64,000 nt of DNA from Nitrosopumilus sp. Lineage in GTDB: Archaea > Thermoproteota > Nitrososphaeria > Nitrososphaerales > Nitrosopumilaceae. The stretch is taken from assembly GCA_965204345.1 (NCBI GenBank), contig OZ241981.1, positions 830,639 through 894,638 on the forward strand, given 5' to 3'. The translations under genes were made by a program, and so were the position numbers. Below, one piece after another: positions 31,189-39,841 of the stretch. Within the stretch, counting starts at the first letter, position 1. Each line of letters opens with the position of its first letter. The notes under the pieces were generated by a model. The model searched no databases, was not told the origin of the DNA, and worked only from the letters and a program-made list of their open reading frames with translations.

Positions 31189-32604
31189 TTATTTTTCTAC
31201 AGGATCTAAATCATCAGATTCGATTTCTACTGTAGCTTCTGCCTCAGGTGTCTCTACTGTAGCTTCTGCCTCAGGTGTCTCTACTGTAGCTTCTGCCTCA
31301 GGTGTCTCTACTGTAGCTTCTGCCTCAGGTGTCTCTACTGTAGCTTCTGCCTCAGGTGTCTCTACTGTAGCTTCTGCCTCAGGTGTCTCTACTGTAGCTT
31401 CTGCCTCAGGTGTCTCTACTGTAGCTTCTGCCTCAGGTGTCTCTACTGTAGCTTCTGCCTCAGGTGTCTCTACTGTAGCTTCTGCCTCAGGTGTCTCTAC
31501 TGTAGCTTCTGCCTCAGGTGTCTCTACTGTAGCTTCTGCCTCAGGTGTCTCTACTGTAGCTTCTGCCTCAGGCTCTTTTGCCTTTTTAGCTGCCTTTTTG
31601 GTAGTTGTCTTTTTGGTAGTCTTTTTTGTCTTTTTCTCAACTTCTTCAGGATCAACTATGCCTGCTTCACCTAGAGCAAAGATTACTTCCTCTTCAGGAT
31701 GATGAGGACTGTCCACCATTCGGGCAATTCGTTTTTTGCCAGATTTCTTAAAGTAAATTCTATAGGTACTTGTATGTGCAACTACATTTCCACCAATTGG
31801 GCGAGTTGGATCTCCAAAGAAGACATCAGGGGATGCCATGACTTGGTTTGTTGCAATTGCAGCGCAGTTGTATGTTTCTGCAATTCTAGACAACAAATGA
31901 ACAAAATGATTCAGTTTTTGTTGTCTAACAGATAGTGTTCCTCTACCAAGATATTCAGCACGGAACAATCCAACTGCAGAATCTGCAACAATGAGTTTGA
32001 CGTTGTTTTCTTCAATTACAGGACCAGCTTCTTCTAAAATCAACACTTGATGTGCACTGTTATATGCACGAGCAACTATGATGTTATCTAAAACTTTTTC
32101 AGGATCCATATCATGGGCTTGAGCAATTGCCACAATTCTTTCAGGTCTGAAAGTATTTTCAGTATCAATATACAAAACAGAGCCTTCAAGGCCGCCTTCT
32201 TCTTTGGTTTTTTGAACCATGACAGACAAGGTATGTGCAAATTGTGTTTTGCCACAACCAAATTCTCCATAGACTTCAGTTAATGCCTGGGTTTCAATGC
32301 CACCATCAAAGAGAGTATCTAAACAATTGGTACCAGTTGTAATTTTACCAATACTTTGTCTGTATTTGTAAATCTCACTTGCACTTACAAAATCTTTGGC
32401 AATTAATCCACCTTCAACTAAGTGTTGCCTGGCTTTGTTTACAATTTTTTCAGCAGTATCTTTTTCCATTCCAGTGATATCTGCAATTTCAACAGGTCCC
32501 CTAACGATGAGGTCCATGACGTTGTGGATACCTGCATCGGATAATTTTCTTGTAGTTACAGGACCTACGCCCTCTAAACTATCTAATCTTAAATCTTCTA
32601 CCAT
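31189..32604 (-). CDS. radA: DNA repair recombinase RadA with basic-then-acidic repetitive C-terminal tail
   Basis: HhH N-domain, GEFGCGKT, IDTENTFRPER, VADS, LFRAEYLGRG, GGNVVAHTS. Confidence 0.96.
   Translation of the reverse strand: MVEDLRLDSLEGVGPVTTRKLSDAGIHNVMDLIVRGPVEIADITGMEKDTAEKIVNKARQHLVEGGLIAKDFVSASEIYKYRQSIGKITTGTNCLDTLFDGGIETQALTEVYGEFGCGKTQFAHTLSVMVQKTKEEGGLEGSVLYIDTENTFRPERIVAIAQAHDMDPEKVLDNIIVARAYNSAHQVLILEEAGPVIEENNVKLIVADSAVGLFRAEYLGRGTLSVRQQKLNHFVHLLSRIAETYNCAAIATNQVMASPDVFFGDPTRPIGGNVVAHTSTYRIYFKKSGKKRIARMVDSPHHPEEEVIFALGEAGIVDPEEVEKKTKKTTKKTTTKKAAKKAKEPEAEATVETPEAEATVETPEAEATVETPEAEATVETPEAEATVETPEAEATVETPEAEATVETPEAEATVETPEAEATVETPEAEATVETPEAEATVETPEAEATVETPEAEATVEIESDDLDPVEK
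31222..31572 (-). repeat. 27-bp tandem repeat x13 encoding PEAEATVET
   Basis: Unit TGTCTCTACTGTAGCTTCTGCCTCAGG; 351 bp = 13 units, 12 identical, last ends VEI. Confidence 0.97.
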
Positions 32605-32635: not shown

Positions 32636-32999
32636 CTTATTGTTCAAGGTACACTATTCCAAACTCGGGACATTTGCACCTAGTGTTCAATTCGGGATAT
32701 GGAATCTAACCTGATCCAATATCTAATTTTATTTCGCTTTCAATGTTTTTGATATGAATACAACATTGTCGCTTTTTGTTATGATTTTTTTTAGTTGTGT
32801 ATAGTAGCATCTATTTTGTTGTAAAATGAAAGTCACAGAGCCATTACATTAAGACAAGATTAGCACATTGGATTGAACATATCATTGCTGAGACATTGCT
32901 AATTTTACTAATTGATGGATTTGTTGCACATAAGCAATCAAGATAAACAGCAATAAAAAATATTTTTATTAATGATGTACCAAAAAATAGGTTAGTTTA

Positions 33000-33557
33000 A
33001 TGTCGCATAAAATCAAATTGTTTTACATCGATGATAACTCACTAAAGCAATTGGGAGAGTTGCTAAGCAATGAAACGAGTAGAAGTATAATTAAAGCATT
33101 AATTGAAAAAGAACATTATACAAATGAGCTTGCTGAAAAACTAGGCATACAAGTGAGTCTAGTAATACATCATCTCAAAAAATTAGAGGAGTTAAACCTA
33201 GTTAATGTAACAAAAAAACGTATTGTAAAAAAGGGAGTTGAACGCAGATTTTTTAGAATAAAATCCGACATTTTCATAACAAAGACAACAAAAGAAGGCG
33301 ATTCCAAAATAGAAGGATTTAAAAAAATCTTCAATGATGGCATAAAATTTGTTGCAATAGGCATTGTATCTGCACTATCTTACATCACTACAAAGTATTA
33401 TGAGAGTACAGAAAAAGTGGTCTCTCATGATAGTGGTGGTGGTATTGAGTATATCCCAGTAATAGAATATCCAATAATAATTGCGCTAGCTGTAATTATT
33501 CTAGGACTTGCAATAGATAGAATTATCTTGTTTAAAAAAAATAAAAGGAGGGGTTAG
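33000..33557 (+). CDS. ArsR-type HTH regulator with two C-terminal transmembrane helices
   Basis: LSNETSRSIIKAL..YTNELAEKLGIQVSLVIHHLKKLEELNLV; TM FVAIGIVSALSYIT and YPIIIALAVIILGLAI. Confidence 0.85.
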   Translation: MSHKIKLFYIDDNSLKQLGELLSNETSRSIIKALIEKEHYTNELAEKLGIQVSLVIHHLKKLEELNLVNVTKKRIVKKGVERRFFRIKSDIFITKTTKEGDSKIEGFKKIFNDGIKFVAIGIVSALSYITTKYYESTEKVVSHDSGGGIEYIPVIEYPIIIALAVIILGLAIDRIILFKKNKRRG

Positions 33558-34730
33558 AGTCCCCAGGATAGTCCAGAAAAATTATTTGTAAATTGATTGT
33601 GTTTTACAAAATAGGCATTATTACTAGAGCCTGCCACATGTATTCCAACAAATCCCGGATCTCCACTAAATGCTTCTGTTACAGGTGCACCACTATCACC
33701 ACCGGCACGAACGTATGTAGTTGATACGACATCCTGCAATATGGTATTAGATTGTGACACGTACAAAAAAGTACTTGGATTTGTAACATAACCCGTCTCA
33801 ACACCTGATACTGCACCATACATCTTTACCCAATCATTTTCAGACACATTATGCGTATGATCTGTAATATCTGTCTGAAAGACCTAGTATTGCTTCAGCT
33901 ACAGATACTGTGGACTCTATAAATGCACAATCACAGTACAATAGCCAGTTGTTCCTATCAAAGGTTTCTCGTACAACTGTTCCAATCACTCTTGCCAATG
34001 TTGGTTGGCCAACATCATCTCCAATACTTCCATCTGTACAATGACCTGCTGTAACAAAGCCTTCTGCACCATTGTATGTTGCCTTGAGACCTACAGTACA
34101 GTAGCCATGATCTTGCATTTGCATTTGTGTACCACCTTCAATTGGATCACATCTAAAAGATGCAGTTGGACATTCATCACTATACACACGATCACCGGGT
34201 TCTACTATTACCTTGATATGATTTGGTACTATATCTGCAATGAAATCTGCATATCTCTGCATGTCTTGGGGAGTTACATGATCAGGATCGATTCCAACCA
34301 GTATGGCATCTGCTACAGAACTATATCCAACAGTTGTAAAAGGAATTACACGCTTGTCTAGACTTTGACGGTTTTCGTCAACTAGTTTTTCAACTAATTT
34401 TGCAGTAGATAGTCTGTACTCTAATTCTTTTTCTGGATTGACTTCAGGCAGTTTGGATAGTGCATCTTGCTTTACTTGCTGCATCTTGTGCAGAATTTCT
34501 TCTTCTTTAGCTGATGTGTCTGCGTCTTCTAGCTTTTGTTCGATCTTAACAAGTTTTTTTGCAGCATCATCCATTATGTGGTTTTTGAACTTTTCTGTCT
34601 TTATGACAACGTTTTTTATACTGTCGGCATCACTTGCCTCTACAAGATTGCTACTGCCAAGTGGCAGTATTATTGTAGCAATCAAGGATGCAAACAGTAC
34701 TGTTTTGAAGTTGTTTCTAGTCATTATCAT
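33554..34730 (-). pseudogene. Secreted chymotrypsin-like (S1, alpha-lytic-type) serine protease split by one frameshift near 33870-33885
   Basis: Signal peptide plus prodomain; His motif FVTAGHC and Asp CDCAFI in 33849-34730; Ser motif GGDSGAP in 33554-33847; frames join as GLS/TDITDHTHNVSENDWVKMYG. Confidence 0.85.
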
Positions 34731-34897
34731 TACAATAAATCATTGATTACTTAAGAAAATCTTTAATTTGAATTGATCATGTTTCACTTGAAAATCCCAA
34801 TCAAAAAATGCCTAGACAAAATAGATTCCTAGTTCTTGAGGCCTTACAGTTGTTAATTACAAGTGAAAGAAACTATTACAATCACTCAAACTTAATT
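34663..34897 (-). repeat. Left copy of ~235-bp promoter + signal-peptide cassette
   Basis: Reverse complement aligns to 37138-37369 with 14 substitutions and one 3-bp indel (hand alignment); ~100 bp core identical. Confidence 0.95.
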
Positions 34898-35009
34898 TTC
34901 TTGGAAATGTAAGACATCAAACATAGATTAAAGATATGTTAACTGCAATTCAAAAAGAAAAACAACAACACAGAAGACACACAGAATATCATAAGCAGGA
35001 TGACCACCT

Positions 35010-35195
35010 ACTAAAAAAGCAACTAAAAAGACAAAAGAGCCTGAGGTAGAGGCTACAGCAGAGACACCTGAGGTAGAGACCAACAGAAATCGAATCTGAT
35101 GATTTAGATCCTGTAGAAAAATAACCAACTCTTTTTCTTTTATTTGGTAATCTTTGAATACTTTGATAGAGTTTTTTGTATGACTCAAATCAAAT
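35010..35195 (+). pseudogene. Inverted, degenerate copy of the radA 3' end, terminator and first codons of the HAD gene
   Basis: Encodes TKKATKKTKEPEVEATAETPEVET../EIESDDLDPVEK* then the intergenic and ATGACTCAAATCAAA; matches reverse complement of 31115-31250 and ~31570-31600. Confidence 0.92.
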
Positions 35196-35347
35196 TGTAG
35201 GACATGATAAAACTAAGAATTCAGAGCACTATTGTATCGATACTAGGTTGAAACATTATGCGATTAATCAAAAGAATATGATGCAAATAAAAGAATGAAT
35301 ATGACAACTAGAAAAATCAAACAATAACATTGTTTGTTTTTTGATAA

Positions 35348-36606
35348 TTAGAGTACTCTGCTTAATTTTTCATGTATATATTGACCATCTTCATCAAATA
35401 AGGGACATTTCATTATTTCAAAATAATTGTAAATCTCATCCATTATAGATGAAGTAATTTTACTATAATTTGCCTTTAGATATGATGACGGAACATTCCT
35501 TTCGACATATGACGTTTTCATATATTCAGTTGGAGAAGTTCCTTCAACAGCTTCTGTTTTGGGGGAAGAAAATATTTGATAATCGTCACTCCGTTCTCCA
35601 TCCTCTAACCCCCATGCAGAATTATTACTTTGTAATTTAACTAATATTTTTACGTCTCCAAAATAATTGTATTGTGAAAAAATATCTTCTGCAAACTGTA
35701 AAACATGCATTAATTTTACAGCCAGAAATGGAAGTCTTATGAAACTAACTTTTAGATTACCATTATGATGTTGTATGTCTTTATCATAGCCTATATCATG
35801 AATATGTTGTATGCATCCATTTCTGTGAACTGCAAGTGCTCTCTTTTCATCCATGCTATTAAAAAAAATCCCTAATTTGTGAGGATTTGGAAATCCTGGA
35901 AGGAAGCCATAACGTCTAGCATTAAAATATCCGGATGGTTCATAATTCACAACATTTGGATTTAATCTATCATATACATTGCGTTTAGTTACATCAATCA
36001 AATTATTATTCAAAATGATAGGAATTACAACGATTTGTGCTTGTAAAGTTTGTGCAATCTCAAGTCGTACTTGATGAAATCGCGTAAGTGGAAACTGTAA
36101 AACAGATCTTTTTAGATATTCTTTGAGATCATCCAAGTTATGAAATCTATTTTTATACATGTCAGATATCTCTTGCTCTTGCATAGGTATTGATTCGAAT
36201 TGAAATCGTTTGTAATATCTTTGAGATTTATTGTCAAAATGAGGCCTGTATCCGCTATCAGGTATTTGTAAAATTAGAAATGAATTGTCTTTTTCATTAT
36301 TTACTATTTTTTGTTTTATCTGTAATCTGGGGAAAATATTTGATAGTATTATTTGTTCAATTCGTTCTTTATTGATTTTCTCAGAAATTCCATTTATTGC
36401 AATAGGATACCACCTTTACCCGATTCTTTTATTCCAAATGCAATATGTCCGCCATGAGTATTTGCAAACGCGCTAACTTGTTTTGTTAATTCTGCGTCCC
36501 CTATAATGCATTCTTTATAATCCAAAATATCGCTTTCAGGCATCTTGTTATCCATTAATGATTTAATATCATCATATTCTAAATAATCAATATTTTTTGT
36601 AATCAT
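35348..36606 (-). pseudogene. Schlafen AlbA_2 (ATP-binding/DNA-binding) domain gene with two frameshifts (~36410 and ~36280)
   Basis: PESDILDYKE..KQVSAFANTHGGHIAFGIKE..GG/YPIAING..ERIEQII../FLILQIPDSGYRPH..YYKRFQFESIPMQEQEISDMYKNRF joins the 70-aa and 278-aa ORFs. Confidence 0.85.
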
Positions 36607-36709
36607 TGTTTTTAGTAATTCCTTATAGATTTAAATTAATTTACTGTTTTGAATATCTCAGATTTGTTTAGATTTATTCGTGATTCAGAATAAAATTTCA
36701 TATAAACAA

Positions 36710-37085
36710 TTTAAATTAATATGATATATTATTTTCTTGCAGTTCCACTTCCAAACAAATACCTTCCCACAGTAGACATTGATGAAAATAATAAAATTTG
36801 TACCATGTAAGATCATCAAGAATCATCGTTTTAGTATCATGTAGATAAACAATAATGAAGCATGTCACTGCTATGCCTAATCCAGCTATAAGAAAAATTC
36901 TTTGTGTTATTGTGGTGTCTATTTCCGTAGTTTTTTAACATCTTCCATTATACCCACCTTACCCGTTTTCTACATCTTGGACATGGTGTCTTACCTTTTT
37001 GAATTACTAGATTGCAGTAAGGACATCGGTATATTTTTGAATCAGAATCAACAATTGATTTTAAAATCGCCGCTCCAATTGCCTG
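36710..37085 (-). pseudogene. Remnants of a small Zn-ribbon gene (RCPYC...CPRC) and a downstream membrane-protein gene
   Basis: AIGAAILKSIVDSDSKIYRCPYCNLVIQKGKTPCPRCRKRVRWV* has no start; next frame MEDVKKLR/IDTTITQRIFLIAGLGIAVTCFIIV is broken. Confidence 0.5.
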
Positions 37086-37137
37086 TTATGGTATGTCGTG
37101 TAGAAGGCGTACTGATAAACAGATCTGAAAATGTAGG

Positions 37138-37369
37138 AATTGAGTTTGAGTAATTGTAATAGTTTCTTTCATTTGTGATTAACAACTGTAAGGTCTCAAC
37201 TAAGAATCTATTTTGTCTAGGCATTTTTTGATTGGGATTTTCAAGTGAAACATGATCAATTCAAATTAAAGATTTTCTTAAGTAATCAATGATTTATTGT
37301 AATGGTAATGACTACAAACAACTTCAAAACAGTACTGTTTGTATCTTTGATTGTTGCAATGATAATGCC
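37138..37369 (+). repeat. Right copy of ~235-bp promoter + signal-peptide cassette
   Basis: Inverted repeat of 34663-34897; includes TTTCAAGTGAAA near-palindrome, TTAAGTA box ~20 bp upstream of the ATG and codons for MVMTTNNFKTVLFVSLIVAMIMP. Confidence 0.95.
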
Positions 37370-38498
37370 GTTTTCTGCAACAGATATGGCTTTTGCAGAA
37401 TCATCGACTGATGTTAAAATCAATGAATACAAACAAAAAGCACTACGAGATAATGAGGTACCATATGATGAACTACTCCAAAGAGTTGGTGATAAATGGT
37501 TATCTAGTTACAAAGATGCGCAGCATTTTGAAATTTCTGAAAAAGCTGTAAACAAATTTGTTGAAAGAAACAAGGTAAAAGACGGTCTGGATAATGAAAA
37601 TGCAAAACTAATTTCTAAAATCCACAACTTTGAGACAATTACAGAATCTGTTGGTGACGGCCACGAAATTGTATTGCTGGTAGCTCAACTAGATAAAGCT
37701 AATGGCAAATACAACCCAAGTGAAACTGTTTCAAGATACCATGATTGGATTGAAGAACAATATACAGTTCCAACAACCGAAAATGGTGTTATAGATAGAC
37801 TAATAGAGATTCTTGGTGACAAAAAACTTGTTAACTTGGCAAAAAAACATGCCAATAATTTTAACAAACTAGCTGAACTCGGTAGCGTTCCAATCGAATT
37901 ATTCATTTCAGATGAAGATTACTGGGGCGAAGTTTCACATGTTGCCTATTGTCAACGAGATTCAAAATGTGATGTTGATGCACTAAAACATCAACCGGGT
38001 GCAACAGCAGAAGAAATTGAAAGAATCCAACAAATAGAGGCTGAAGTAAACGATGTATCATTTGATCTTTGGGATCTAGTTTTACCAGAAGCATACGCTT
38101 GGACCAAAGTTCAAGTTTCATATGATCTCCATGGTAAAATAAAACTAGGTGCATGCTATTATAAAAACTGTGATGAAATCTGGGATGAAACAACCATGGG
38201 GGCAGACTCAATTGATCATGATAGTTATGGCTTCCCCAATTTAAGGCATGTTGAAAGAGATTATAGCATGTATTTCCATGGAAGAGTATGTGACAACTAT
38301 ACTGGTTCACAAACCATTGTCAATAAAGTTGAAACAACTCCATACCTAGCACAATCTTTGCGAACAGATTTGAGTGATGATGATATAAAAATCAACAGAT
38401 GTGCGTATGCTAGTCATAATGATTCCTCAGCATCCCATCCATTTATTGTTGGAATTCTCGTAGAAAGTCCTGGCTCCTATTATTGGACCAACCAATAA
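37302..38498 (+). CDS. Secreted protein of unknown function (398 aa)
   Basis: Signal peptide ending MAFA; Cys-containing C-terminal region (YCQRDSKC, GACYYKNC, RVC, NRC); no recognisable catalytic motif. Confidence 0.8.
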   Translation: MVMTTNNFKTVLFVSLIVAMIMPFSATDMAFAESSTDVKINEYKQKALRDNEVPYDELLQRVGDKWLSSYKDAQHFEISEKAVNKFVERNKVKDGLDNENAKLISKIHNFETITESVGDGHEIVLLVAQLDKANGKYNPSETVSRYHDWIEEQYTVPTTENGVIDRLIEILGDKKLVNLAKKHANNFNKLAELGSVPIELFISDEDYWGEVSHVAYCQRDSKCDVDALKHQPGATAEEIERIQQIEAEVNDVSFDLWDLVLPEAYAWTKVQVSYDLHGKIKLGACYYKNCDEIWDETTMGADSIDHDSYGFPNLRHVERDYSMYFHGRVCDNYTGSQTIVNKVETTPYLAQSLRTDLSDDDIKINRCAYASHNDSSASHPFIVGILVESPGSYYWTNQ

Positions 38499-38500
38499 CC

Positions 38501-38515
38501 TTTTTTTCTTTTTTT
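38501..38515 (+). terminator. Oligo-T archaeal terminator
   Basis: TTTTTTTCTTTTTTT directly after the stop codon. Confidence 0.55.
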
Positions 38516-38529
38516 GATGATACTAATAC

Positions 38530-39081
38530 ATGAAAAATTCAATTCTGCTAATAGTTGGAATTATTGCAATAGTAACAGTGGTGATTCCACTTAATTACAA
38601 TGCATTGACTGATCATTACACATACACAGCACCAATAAAAAATAGTAAAATTTATCCTAATTATACACATGTTGATAGCCCTCTATTCAAAGGAATTAAT
38701 GACACATTTTCAGAGAAATTAATTGACATTACATTGATAGATGCCCAAACTGTGAAAATTAATTTTAGGAATGATGGTGAACTGCCTCCTTGGCCAATAA
38801 ATGATTTTGAAGACTTTGAAAGAGAATTTGGTGTCGGCGATAGTTTTGTTACACGCTGTCAGGAAGATGCAAAAGATTCCACTAGTTATCTTACAATTCT
38901 ACAGTTTAATGGCACAAGACAAATCAAAGAAGATATCTTTGCTGACTTTATTCATGCAGATGCCTCATCCAAAGCATTAATCCCTTGCAATTATCCCCAA
39001 ATAGTGGATTATTCAACAAACATCTTTGAATTGAATACCATAATTGATAATGAATTCATTTGGAAGTTCAAAGAAGGATAG
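38530..39081 (+). CDS. Membrane-anchored extracellular hypothetical protein
   Basis: N-terminal hydrophobic helix, soluble domain with two Cys. Confidence 0.75.
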   Translation: MKNSILLIVGIIAIVTVVIPLNYNALTDHYTYTAPIKNSKIYPNYTHVDSPLFKGINDTFSEKLIDITLIDAQTVKINFRNDGELPPWPINDFEDFEREFGVGDSFVTRCQEDAKDSTSYLTILQFNGTRQIKEDIFADFIHADASSKALIPCNYPQIVDYSTNIFELNTIIDNEFIWKFKEG

Positions 39082-39208
39082 TATTAGAAGAGACATCTAT
39101 GAATAATTTTTTGTCCAACATACTCAAGATTAAAAAAAATACAAGAAGATAAGTTTTGATCAGAGTTAAGAGAGCATTGTGATCTGACAGTGGAAGAGTC
39201 ACAAAAGC

Positions 39209-39464
39209 ATGCCATCTGAAATACTAAAAATTTATTGTGAGGATATAAAATTGATCAGTACAAATTTTGCAAGTATTTCATTCTCATCAACTCATCCAAA
39301 TCAAGCAGTGGAGACTGGCAATATTGCAGAGTCAACACTAGAACTGTCATCAGATGTAATAGATTTGGATACAACGATATCTTCCAAAAGATGACAAAGA
39401 ACAGAAAAAAGTTTGGAAACTTCTTAAGGGAAGGGTTGATTCATATGTGAATCCTAGAAAATAA
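39209..39464 (+). pseudogene. Frameshifted hypothetical gene upstream of the PIN-like gene
   Basis: ..STHPNQAVETGNIAESTLELSSDVID continues in another frame as IWIQRYLPKDDKEQKKVWKLLKGRVDSYVNPRK*, ending 6 bp before the next ATG. Confidence 0.45.
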
Positions 39465-39470
39465 CACCGC

Positions 39471-39746
39471 ATGACAGAGATTGAATTTCTCTTAGATGAA
39501 AATGCTTTAGGTCTGGCAAGATTTTTGGAAAACAGTGTAAAATACAGAAAGGTAGGAGATAATGGATGTCCTGCAAAGGAAGCAGGGGATCCAGAGGTTG
39601 TAAAGTTTGCAAGAGAGAATAATTTGGTTATTGTTACCAGAGACACCAAAATGATAGAGCAATGCAAGTTCGAAAATATAAAATGTGTCACATTTACTGA
39701 CACAGACTTTGCCAGAAAAGTGGTAGATTATACAAAGACTGTTTGA
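39471..39746 (+). CDS. DUF5615/Mut7-C-type PIN-like protein
   Basis: FLLDEN, GDPEVVKFARENNLVIVTRD. Confidence 0.8.
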   Translation: MTEIEFLLDENALGLARFLENSVKYRKVGDNGCPAKEAGDPEVVKFARENNLVIVTRDTKMIEQCKFENIKCVTFTDTDFARKVVDYTKTV

Positions 39747-39841
39747 TGTCCCAAAAGGGTGCTACCTGTTGTTTGTACCACAAAGATAACAGAACCTGTC
39801 TAAAAAGATGATCGTAAAACGGCGAAATATTCTAAGACAGA

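Follow-up and report, generated by a model that had tools for sequence, protein, structure and literature searches.

An inverted repeat and the genes it heads

The locus lies in a 64-kb stretch of DNA, referred to here in its entirety as the window, and is built around two divergent genes whose 5′ ends fall within the arms of an inverted repeat (Table 1). The repeat, described in an earlier note on this DNA as approximately 93% identical, was recovered by both a repeat search of the window and pairwise alignment. The arms are 92.8% identical over 235 nt, and a 3-bp indel splits them into segments of 172 nt (34663-34834/37198-37369, 95% identity) and 62 nt (34836-34897/37138-37199, 92% identity). 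Each arm comprises 164-167 nt upstream of the first ATG followed by 67-69 nt of coding sequence. The alignment contains a perfectly identical core of 101 nt, two sub-sequences of which occur exactly twice each in the window, where shuffled sequences are expected to contain none. This core, a putative promoter, holds the start codons and, at roughly -39 to -31, the A/T-rich, TATA-like element AAATTAAAG.

The arms are not assembly artefacts: the proximal left arm (from ~40 nt upstream of the ATG) is joined to the protease gene in the same way in an independent Logan contig, and the right-arm junction is reproduced in a JGI contig. Exact searches for the cassette core returned no match in JGI metagenome contigs, among which the sample that gave L095, the locus of the right-gene orthologue in another strain, is evidently not represented. 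An RNA element within the arm was considered and rejected (no Rfam match, no nearby tRNA and a fold z-score of +1.3).

Table 1. Coordinates of the features of the locus, numbered within the 64-kb window
Feature	Position	Strand	Remarks
ArsR-type HTH membrane protein	33000..33557	+	Convergent with protease; from Pfam and comparison with L096
Pre-pro alpha-lytic-protease-like (S1E) serine protease gene	33554..34730	-	Frameshift near 33863
Left arm of inverted repeat	34663..34897	-	167 nt upstream of protease gene and first 22-23 codons
Recently copied tract, left copy	34691..34897	-	-167 to +40
Identical 101-nt core, left counterpart	34728-34828		Pairwise alignment
Left-arm counterpart of MPRQNRF mini-ORF	34808-34912	+	
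Spacer between arms	34898..37137		2.2 kb, low GC
278-aa ORF	35348-36184	-	In spacer; no family
AlbA_2/Schlafen fragment	36394-36606	-	In spacer
Start-less Zn-ribbon ORF (CxxC...CxxC), YRCPYCNLVIQKGKTPCPRCRKRV	36951-37085	-	~50 nt from right arm
Mini-ORF (MPRQNRF...)	37048..37224	-	Outward from right arm; starts 78 nt upstream of leader gene
Right arm of inverted repeat	37138..37369	+	164 nt upstream of 398-aa gene and first 22-23 codons
Recently copied tract, right copy	37138..37341	+	-164 to +40
Identical 101-nt core	37204-37304	+	Pairwise alignment
398-aa secreted protein	37302..38498	+	Leader; helical domain ~33-260; C-terminal beta-sandwich 267-398
183-aa protein	38530..39081	+	N-terminal membrane anchor; downstream of 398-aa gene

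The left arm heads an S1 protease, as had been claimed, but the gene is not intact. A 293-aa ORF (34730-33849, minus strand) encodes the leader, the pro-region and the His and Asp of the protease, and the GDSG serine motif lies in the next frame (33883-33554, minus strand); the break sits where homologues have the Pro codon of ‘RYYPDHTH’. A profile of the protease family matched the alpha-lytic protease chain 3ure_A in the PDB (E=1e-16) over the catalytic domain, and the TAGHC, CDCAF and GDSG motifs are conserved in the family alignment, as is a long N-terminal pro-region. At the level of the family, the left cargo therefore has the chymotrypsin fold, His/Asp/Ser triad and pro-region of the alpha-lytic proteases and streptogrisins (MEROPS S1E), with the Ser out of frame in the window. 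It differs from them in being archaeal, in carrying a Nitrosopumilaceae leader and in the frameshift of the window copy. The protease is at its ancestral position, because its pairing with an ArsR-type HTH gene recurs beside the orthologue at L096.

The right arm heads a 398-aa protein for which no Pfam, NCBIfam or PDB match was found and which lacks protease motifs. Its predicted structure (pLDDT 78) is a novel model of a helical domain and a beta-sandwich, the latter with conserved Cys; a Foldseek search of the PDB with this model returned only jelly-roll-like matches, none of them significant (best E=0.012). The 398-aa family has a conserved partner in the 183-aa protein encoded downstream, whose counterparts in two other genomes are 73% and 66% identical to it. 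The mature proteins headed by the two arms are unrelated, as had been proposed: BLASTP aligned residues 1-39 only, and profile-profile comparison (hhalign) aligned 34 columns, all in the leader. Full-length homology between them, the outcome that the earlier note had set against its own reading, was not seen.

The spacer is apparently gene debris, and it sits within a low-GC island. The start-less Zn-ribbon ORF that had been noticed beside the right arm is present. The mini-ORF that runs outward from the right arm may be the remnant 5′ end of a divergent gene, to judge from weak homology. Pfam searches with nine of the larger ORFs across 33000-39746 identified the ArsR HTH, the AlbA_2 fragment and a PIN-like domain, and found no recombinase, transposase, integrase or invertase domain in these nine. 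No orphan or promoter-less cargo cassettes were found in the window.

A conserved leader on many secreted proteins

Both genes open with ~30 codons for a leader with the consensus M..K..KTILFASLIAAMILPFSxMxxAxA. Sec-type (SPase I) signal peptides have a short basic n-region, a hydrophobic h-region of 10-15 residues and a c-region with small residues at -3 and -1 (AxA). Inspection of the alignment revealed the same layout in the leader, with an n-region M..K..K(T), the h-region ILFASLIAAMILPF and a c-region S.MDFAEA or ATDMAFA; the leader is thus probably a Sec-type signal peptide, with putative cleavage after AxA. Other classes were rejected. Class III (type IV pilin-like) archaeal signal peptides have a [KR][GA] cleavage motif immediately before the hydrophobic stretch, whereas here T precedes the h-region (K-T-I-L-F) and an AxA c-region follows the hydrophobic stretch. 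A lipoprotein leader would have a lipobox Cys at +1 and a Tat leader a twin-arginine motif in the n-region; neither the c-region nor what follows it contains Cys, and the consensus has no RR.

A profile search with the leader retrieved at least 494 representatives of protein clusters at E<=1e-3, of which 225 reached E<=1e-10; in every one of the 150 matches listed, the match began within the first ~35 residues. The proposal that it heads many unrelated cargoes was borne out: 87 long representatives fell into ~34 BLAST families. Pfam identified trypsin, reprolysin and A4 peptidases among these 87, and a matrixin (M10) cargo was found separately at locus L036, so that the recognisable cargoes are S1, M10, M12 and A4 peptidases, accompanied by many others of unidentified fold. 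When concatenated leaders were searched against proteins by a word index, only 21 candidates came back, most of them short fragments; these illustrate the range of cargoes and are not a count. Within the window, a leader HMM found only the two arm-headed ORFs. The homologues of both proteins in other Nitrosopumilaceae have the same leader, although they were collected via their mature parts. Since trypsin-fold, metzincin, A4 and other cargoes cannot share ancestry, the leader must have been joined to them by recombination on an evolutionary scale.

Third-codon identity in the leader core is only ~0.66-0.69, and the peptide is therefore conserved despite synonymous change. Even so, genes with no other relationship retain ~80% identity over the ~70-nt coding stretch. 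The leader matched no model in Pfam or NCBIfam, and neither its motif string nor a conserved thaumarchaeal signal peptide came up in searches of the literature; a conserved Nitrosopumilaceae leader on many cargoes appears not to have been described previously.

Approximately 40 bacterial loci that matched a degenerate leader pattern were discarded as chance matches inside membrane segments, away from N-termini. A search of viral contigs gave only three identical matches, judged to be chance, and no prophage context for leader genes. Leader loci were often recovered in variable, IS-rich regions, and the source names of some suggest host- or sediment-associated genomes.

Extent and origin of the shared 5′ region

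The identity between the arms stops inside the signal peptide, as the earlier note had stated, but the recently copied tract ends at +40 (codon 14) and not at codon 23. Over this tract (~205 nt, 96% identity) the right copy differs from the left by eight substitutions and a 3-nt indel. Between +41 and +67 there are six differing sites; the right copy agrees with its own orthologue, L095, at all six, and the left copy with the protease orthologue, L096, at three. From +41 onwards the left copy resembles the leader of L096 and not that of the right copy. On this comparison, what the two copies have in common between +41 and +67 is of older date and reflects conservation of the leader across the family. 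Non-coding DNA is indeed better conserved than the leader codons, and this is because the recent tract ends at +40; relaxed constraint on the codons is not the cause.

Orthologues provided some indication of the history of the cassette. It also accompanies the right-gene orthologue in another strain (L095), and upstream DNA of right-gene orthologues in other species is unrelated to it. From -55 to -1 the cassette is ~70% similar to the DNA upstream of the protease orthologue L096, which is unrelated beyond -55. The evidence on which copy gave rise to the other thus points both ways (L095 against L096). At the distal end of the tract (-167) no homology is visible, though classical gene conversion would need some, and a template switch or an illegitimate junction is equally possible there. 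The distance between the arms is about the same as that to the other-strain orthologue (11-13 differences), which argues against frequent or continuing homogenisation, with the 101-nt core as a possible exception.

Shared upstream DNA was also sought in other genomes by comparing local alignment scores. Upstream-140 similarity was higher within than between genomes (Mann-Whitney p=2e-6; 23 within-genome pairs of leader genes, from other genomes and the window). Six of these pairs scored above the 99th percentile of between-genome pairs, with unrelated downstream DNA, and the other 17 had no shared upstream DNA. In several other genomes, genes that lie side by side or scattered, and whose mature parts are unrelated, have near-identical upstream and leader DNA, with the similarity ending within the signal peptide or shortly after it, as at L062 (-184 to +69, 95.7%) and L036 (-68 to +92, 93%, with at least four module copies in 8 kb). 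In several genomes, leader genes with different cargo families have a promoter motif, AAAGGCATACCGCAAGTCAATATCAATTTTAATATAAT, in common upstream; the window cassette does not contain it. With 17 of the 23 pairs having no upstream DNA in common, it is chiefly the leader peptide that is portable, and promoters are shared only in some cases.

The explanation that we favour, with a probability of about 0.7, is that ectopic recombination (gene conversion) anchored in conserved leader DNA homogenises promoter and leader. As the leader stretch is ~80% identical between unrelated genes, it could serve as a homology patch for such recombination. A single non-allelic gene conversion, or a short inverted duplication, would have copied ~205 nt (-167 to +40) between the head-to-head leader genes, transferring the promoter region and the leader n-region and leaving one tract end inside the leader. 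The protease copy would have been frameshifted afterwards, and the inverted orientation would merely reflect the divergent gene arrangement. Both genes now share a putative promoter and the beginning of the export signal, and should therefore be transcribed and exported alike.

The earlier note had envisaged a portable module for expression and export, onto which cargoes are grafted by recombination in the leader. Its portable aspect is borne out by the many cargoes, by the 5′ modules that are repeated within genomes and break off inside the leader or shortly beyond it, and by the clustered copies at L036. Leader-only stubs (34-63 aa, 8 of ~50 leader genes) and the IS-rich surroundings would also suit an active cassette-swap or phase-variation system driven by programmed recombination. 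Such active swapping is nonetheless unlikely. The window holds two copies and no cassette array, no recombinase or transposase domain was found in the nine ORFs searched, and both copies have a promoter, so that there is no silent/expressed asymmetry. An inversion between the arms would turn round the 2.2-kb spacer alone, with nothing exchanged, since both cargoes are encoded beyond the repeat. The stubs that were examined are decayed paralogues or orthologues (L078 resembles L072, and L068 resembles L009) and not promoter-less cassettes, most within-genome pairs share no upstream DNA, and the arms, ~4% diverged, are not being kept identical. The same arms might instead be the terminal inverted repeats of an invertible or mobile 2.7-kb element, or a switch that inverts the spacer, since long inverted repeats could recombine; the debris-like spacer in its low-GC island and the loss of synteny with L095 within ~13 nt of the right arm's outer edge would be in keeping with this. 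That interpretation is very unlikely: the nine island ORFs searched, which include the two main spacer ORFs, have no transposase or recombinase domain, the arms hold functional 5′ ends of genes that lie outside the segment, no target-site duplication came to notice, and inversion would have no predictable effect on either gene.

Two further accounts do without recombination between the genes. Selection could independently have retained a common regulon promoter/operator and a constrained signal peptide, as the recurrence of AAAGGCATACCGCAAGTCAATATCAATTTTAATATAAT on different cargoes, the persistence of the leader peptide through synonymous change and the proximal similarity to L096 would allow. 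We consider this quite unlikely, as it cannot account for a 205-nt tract that is 96% identical and includes 101 nt without a mismatch: the upstream DNA of right-gene orthologues is unrelated, that of L096 is unrelated beyond -55, and the window lacks the motif. A simple duplication of one gene, after which the mature parts diverged, would explain why a helical N-terminal region follows the same leader in both proteins. It is extremely improbable and, at the sensitivity of hhalign, already refuted, given that only leader columns align and that an alpha-lytic protease fold stands against a helical and beta-sandwich protein.

As a rule, signal peptides evolve fast and unrelated proteins do not have one in common. 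That hundreds of different secreted proteins carry a near-invariant leader points past generic Sec targeting, to a dedicated recognition step, shared regulation or the recombination-based building of secreted proteins as possible roles. We tentatively raise a broader idea, which is possible though doubtful: that of a ‘leader-tagged’ secretome, in which the leader would mark hundreds of fast-evolving secreted proteins for a specific route of export, processing or regulation, and its DNA would be a recombination handle for the exchange of promoters and cargoes, assembling new secreted proteins. The leader also offers a simple sequence tag with which to list a previously unrecognised, protease-rich exoproteome in the ammonia-oxidising Nitrosopumilaceae and, if export is efficient, would be a candidate secretion tag for organisms without genetic tools. 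Ectopic recombination being the favoured explanation, the window would be a clean, datable case of promoter and leader copying between unrelated archaeal genes; to our knowledge, such copying has so far been documented mainly in bacterial pathogens.

Relation to known systems

In polymorphic toxin systems, a conserved N-terminal trafficking domain precedes a C-terminal toxin that varies, an immunity gene lies next to it, and orphan C-terminal/immunity cassettes occur. At this locus only the signal peptide is shared, the window has no orphan cassettes, and the conserved small downstream gene accompanies only the 398-aa family. The YSIRK-G/S, KxYKxGKxW and SipW-cognate leaders are bacterial and have curated models; they are conserved signal-peptide classes on unrelated secreted proteins of one lineage. 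The present leader differs in being archaeal and in having no Pfam or NCBIfam model, and resembles them in suggesting a function beyond generic Sec targeting.

The nearest known analogues are found in Borrelia (erp) and Mycoplasma (vsp/vpma). In the vsp, vpma and vsa families of Mycoplasma, the 5′ untranslated and signal-peptide region is conserved, the mature parts differ and recombination occurs within the 5′ region (PMC2268961). The conserved 5′ region on differing mature parts is the point of likeness. A Mycoplasma locus of this kind has a single promoter and silent copies, and a tyrosine recombinase encoded next to it (Xer1, Mbr or HvsR) drives high-frequency site-specific inversions, whereas here the cargoes lie outside the repeat, Pfam found no recombinase in the nine larger ORFs, and in place of a single expression site with silent promoter-less genes there are two divergent genes, each with the whole upstream region and its putative promoter.

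The erp (OspE/F-related) genes of Borrelia burgdorferi are also named Elp (PMC12242104). They too place one conserved promoter/operator (the ‘upstream homology box’) and leader on mature parts of independent origin, in several copies per genome and with frequent recombination. One leader on independent mature parts is also what was found here (494 clusters; ~34 families in 87), whereas promoter/operator DNA is not common to all the members of a genome (6 of 23 pairs above background). The erp products are lipoproteins with an SPase II lipobox, encoded at one allelic site on cp32 prophage plasmids and with known operator proteins; the genes described here are chromosomal and archaeal, with a Sec/SPase I-type leader without Cys, many protease cargoes and only occasional promoter sharing. 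A leader-tagged secretome, if it exists, would be the archaeal counterpart of the principle seen in Borrelia erp and Mycoplasma vsp.

The inverted repeat and the extent of recent copying

The inverted repeat described in the earlier note is present. The two segments returned by the repeat search were resolved by alignment into a single 235-nt repeat broken by a 3-bp indel, with a perfect run of 101 nt in the alignment of the arms (Table). Each arm comprises 22-23 codons of leader, counted from the first ATG, and the 164-167 nt before them. Two core sub-sequences each occurred exactly twice in the window (0 expected from shuffles), and a leader HMM run against all window ORFs matched just the two leader ORFs; the window therefore holds only two copies. 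The arms are genuine and not assembly artefacts, because their junctions recur elsewhere: Logan contig L004 reproduces, with one SNP, the protease gene joined to the ATG-proximal portion of the left arm, starting ~40 nt before the ATG, and JGI contig L095, from another strain, has the right arm joined to its gene at 96.5% identity. The arms were not associated with any RNA family, stable fold or tRNA, and no viral carriage was found.

The limits of the copied tract were examined in a four-way alignment of the left arm, the right arm, L095 (the right-gene orthologue) and L096 (a protease orthologue). The arms agree through nt +40, counted from the first ATG, ending ...CAGTACTGTTTG. From +41 to +67 they differ at 6 of 28 sites, the right copy matching L095 at all six and the left copy matching L096 at three. 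As each copy resembles its own orthologue beyond +40, the alignment places the recent tract at -167 to +40 (~205 nt), and the similarity from there to codon 23 is older, family-level leader similarity. The identity reported to stop inside the signal peptide does end within the leader, at +40 rather than at codon 23; non-coding DNA indeed seems better conserved than the leader codons, because the recent tract stops at that point.

Private changes within the tract comprise five substitutions and a 3-nt indel in the right copy, three substitutions in the left copy and eight in L095. On these counts the copying dates from about the time when the window strain and the L095 strain separated, and the tract is not being continually re-homogenised, with the 101-nt core as a possible exception. 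This core holds no differences where ~4 would be expected at a uniform rate (our own estimate), which suggests that it is constrained or was converted again in a later, nested event. In other species, the DNA upstream of the right-gene orthologues is unrelated to the cassette, and L096 resembles the cassette in the proximal ~55 nt only. Homology between the window and L095 stops ~13 nt past the outer edge of the right arm, and the adjoining genes differ.

The two genes and their island

BLASTP and hhalign aligned the two mature proteins in the leader only. The right copy thus heads a protein unrelated to the protease, as first claimed, and distant homology between the two was not detected by either method. 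The 398-aa protein belongs to a small family (18 matches) that matched nothing in Pfam, NCBIfam or PDB sequences. Its AlphaFold model (pLDDT 78, pTM 0.77) predicts a helical domain and a C-terminal beta-sandwich, and gave no significant Foldseek match. In three genomes the family is followed by a conserved membrane-anchored protein of ~170-183 aa; the partner in the window shows 73% and 66% identity to its counterparts in two further Nitrosopumilus genomes and weak similarity to one in a third.

The left copy heads an S1 protease gene, as proposed, albeit a frameshifted one. Its family consists of Nitrosopumilaceae pre-pro-proteases of 385-406 aa, and a comparison of the family profile with the PDB picks out alpha-lytic protease and streptogrisins (3ure_A, E=1e-16) over the catalytic domain only, in line with an S1E assignment. 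The 293-aa ORF terminates at 33849; the C-terminal portion with the GDSG motif lies in a different frame, from 33883 onward, and one stray base (33863) stands where homologues have a conserved Pro codon (RYYPDHTH). An identical lesion, one SNP apart, is found in the independent contig L004 (SRR061720). Judged by its reading frame, the window gene is a pseudogene. The ArsR-type gene convergent with it also adjoins the protease orthologue in L096, which argues that the protease occupies the ancestral position.

Both genes lie in a low-GC island (29-33% GC vs 38-43% in the flanks) bounded by radA on one side and by S30e and radical-SAM genes on the other, together with pseudogene debris and a PIN-like/DUF5615 gene. 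The 2.2-kb spacer between the arms, which appears to be debris, contains an AlbA_2 fragment, a 278-aa ORF without family and a Zn-ribbon ORF. The 278-aa ORF begins ~210 nt downstream of the AlbA_2 fragment, and the two probably derive from a single disrupted gene that encoded an AlbA_2-type DNA-binding protein. The start-less Zn-ribbon-like ORF of the earlier note was recovered ~50 nt from the right arm; it may be a gene remnant, or else a small gene that starts in an unusual way. The neighbouring radA gene closes with a perfect tandem array of a 27-nt unit (12.9 copies) that encodes PEAEATVET repeats, an acidic C-terminal tail of ~116 aa preceded by a lysine-rich stretch. RadA proteins do not usually carry such a tail, and since its repeats are 100% identical the array appears to have expanded recently.

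Features of the window and of retrieved loci (window positions unless a locus is named; signed positions are relative to the first ATG)
Feature	Position	Strand	Description
radA	31189-32604	-	RadA recombinase
radA repeat array	31226-31572	-	27-nt unit
Low-GC island	~32700-39800
ArsR-type gene	33000-33557		convergent with protease
Protease frameshift	33849-33883	-
Inverted-repeat segment 1	34663-34834/37198-37369		172 nt, 95%
Inverted-repeat segment 2	34836-34897/37138-37199		62 nt, 92%
Perfect core	34728-34828/37204-37304		101 nt
AlbA_2 fragment and 278-aa ORF	35348-36606	-
AlbA_2/Schlafen N-terminal fragment	36394-36606	-	70 aa
Zn-ribbon ORF	36951-37085	-	45 codons, no start codon, CPYC...CPRC motif
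Partner of 398-aa family	38530-39081	+	183 aa, N-terminal membrane anchor
PIN-like/DUF5615 gene	39471-39746
High-similarity pair	window pair
High-similarity pair	L062, -184 to +69		tandem genes, 95.7%; one gene a 398-aa family member
High-similarity pair	L036, -68 to +92		inverted, 93%
High-similarity pair	L010/L090
High-similarity pair	L010/L078
High-similarity pair	L048/L060
~270-aa divergent gene	L036 4443-5258
~270-aa divergent gene	L061 182-979
~270-aa divergent gene	L026 2347-3156
~270-aa divergent gene	L062 4012-4485 and 5921-6040
Histidine kinase and response regulator	L036 5261-6870		Nitrosopumilus sp. UBA526

A conserved leader on diverse cargoes

The leader (consensus M..K..KTILFASLIAAMILPFSxMxxAxA) was present on homologues of both families, which had been retrieved via their mature parts and not via the leader. 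Short proteins and fragments with this leader and different continuations were also seen. A leader profile searched against 1.84 billion cluster representatives returned 494 proteins at E<=1e-3 (225 at E<=1e-10), the match starting within the first ~35 residues in every one of the 150 matches listed. The 87 representatives of at least 200 aa formed ~34 BLAST families. Just a few of these cargoes were recognised by Pfam, as S1 (trypsin-like), M12 (reprolysin-like) and A4 peptidases; locus L036 separately yielded an M10 (matrixin-like) cargo. The leader itself has no model in Pfam or NCBIfam, and a literature search found no paper with the motif. Within the reach of these searches, the leader appears to be undescribed.

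By inspection, the basic n-region, 14-residue h-region and AxA c-region predict a classical Sec/SPase I signal peptide; class III, lipoprotein and Tat signals were rejected on the same basis. A degenerate DNA pattern of the leader core was found at ~45 loci in Nitrosopumilus, Nitrosarchaeum and other Nitrosopumilaceae, always at gene starts, and bacterial matches were discarded as chance. Third-codon identity in the core is just ~0.66-0.69, which suggests that the peptide is kept despite synonymous change, a caveat being that the amino acids were set by the search pattern. In the two families, gathered without reference to the leader, its core is somewhat more conserved than the mature part (0.57 vs 0.48 and 0.50 vs 0.37). 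A sub-class of leader proteins (P0097, P0103, P0105, P0106, P0108, P0113 and others) also shares the first residues past the predicted cleavage site (...PFSGMMMAEA-APNENAN...), which suggests that the mature N-terminus is conserved or that a second signal, for processing or sorting, is present.

Sharing of 5' regions and its likely origin

Upstream similarity was assessed over the 140 nt preceding the leader core for all pairs of archaeal leader genes. It was greater within than between genomes (Mann-Whitney p=2e-6), and in 6 of 23 within-genome pairs, all with unrelated downstream DNA, it lay above the between-genome 99th percentile (Table); one between-genome pair (L058/L094) also combined shared upstream with unrelated downstream DNA. 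Locus L036 holds at least four module copies in 8 kb, and leader n-regions are genome-specific (e.g., MILMTKYNAKT occurs in three leaders of one genome, MTYKNAKTV in two of another). Stubs of 34-63 aa make up 8 of ~50 leader genes, those examined being decayed paralogues or orthologues; together with the frameshifted window protease, they are consistent with a fast-turnover gene class.

In four genomes a conserved ~270-aa gene of no known family is transcribed divergently from a leader gene. A recurrent promoter motif (...AAAGGCATACCGCAAGTCAATATCAATTTTAATATAAT...) contains GGCAT, the reverse complement of the ATG-CC (Met-Pro) start of this gene, and partial 5' ends of the gene accompany duplicated leader modules. 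The window arms have a divergent mini-ORF (MPRQNRF...) at the equivalent position, possibly a remnant of the same gene. The histidine kinase and response regulator pair in L036 lies between two inverted leader modules and may be a candidate regulator of that cluster.

The most economical reading of these observations has three steps. Selection would hold the leader peptide nearly constant, possibly for efficient or dedicated recognition; the resulting ~80% leader DNA identity between otherwise unrelated genes would permit occasional ectopic recombination; and this would copy the adjoining promoter region between leader genes, or attach the leader to new cargoes. In the window, one event of this kind would have taken place between two neighbouring genes arranged head to head in the low-GC island. 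An active switching system at this locus is unlikely: Pfam scans of nine larger island ORFs found no recombinase, both copies have the putative promoter, and the cargoes lie outside the repeat, so that inversion would flip the spacer only. The evidence favours sporadic homologous recombination rather than a dedicated cassette-swap mechanism. The portable module envisaged in the earlier note therefore holds in so far as a single leader heads many cargoes and genes acquire 5' modules from one another by copying, without the dedicated swapping.

After the Borrelia erp genes, the next nearest known systems are the Mycoplasma vsp/vpma/vsa loci, where recombinases drive inversions through the conserved 5' UTR and signal-peptide regions (PMC2268961). 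The Nitrosopumilaceae case differs in being archaeal and chromosomal, in its predicted Sec/SPase-I-type leader, in its many protease cargoes, in sharing promoters only sporadically, and in the absence of a recombinase among the nine ORFs scanned and of silent cassettes in the window. Common to the Nitrosopumilaceae leader genes and the known systems are a single leader with diverse cargoes and recombination, probable in the archaeal case, in the 5' region.
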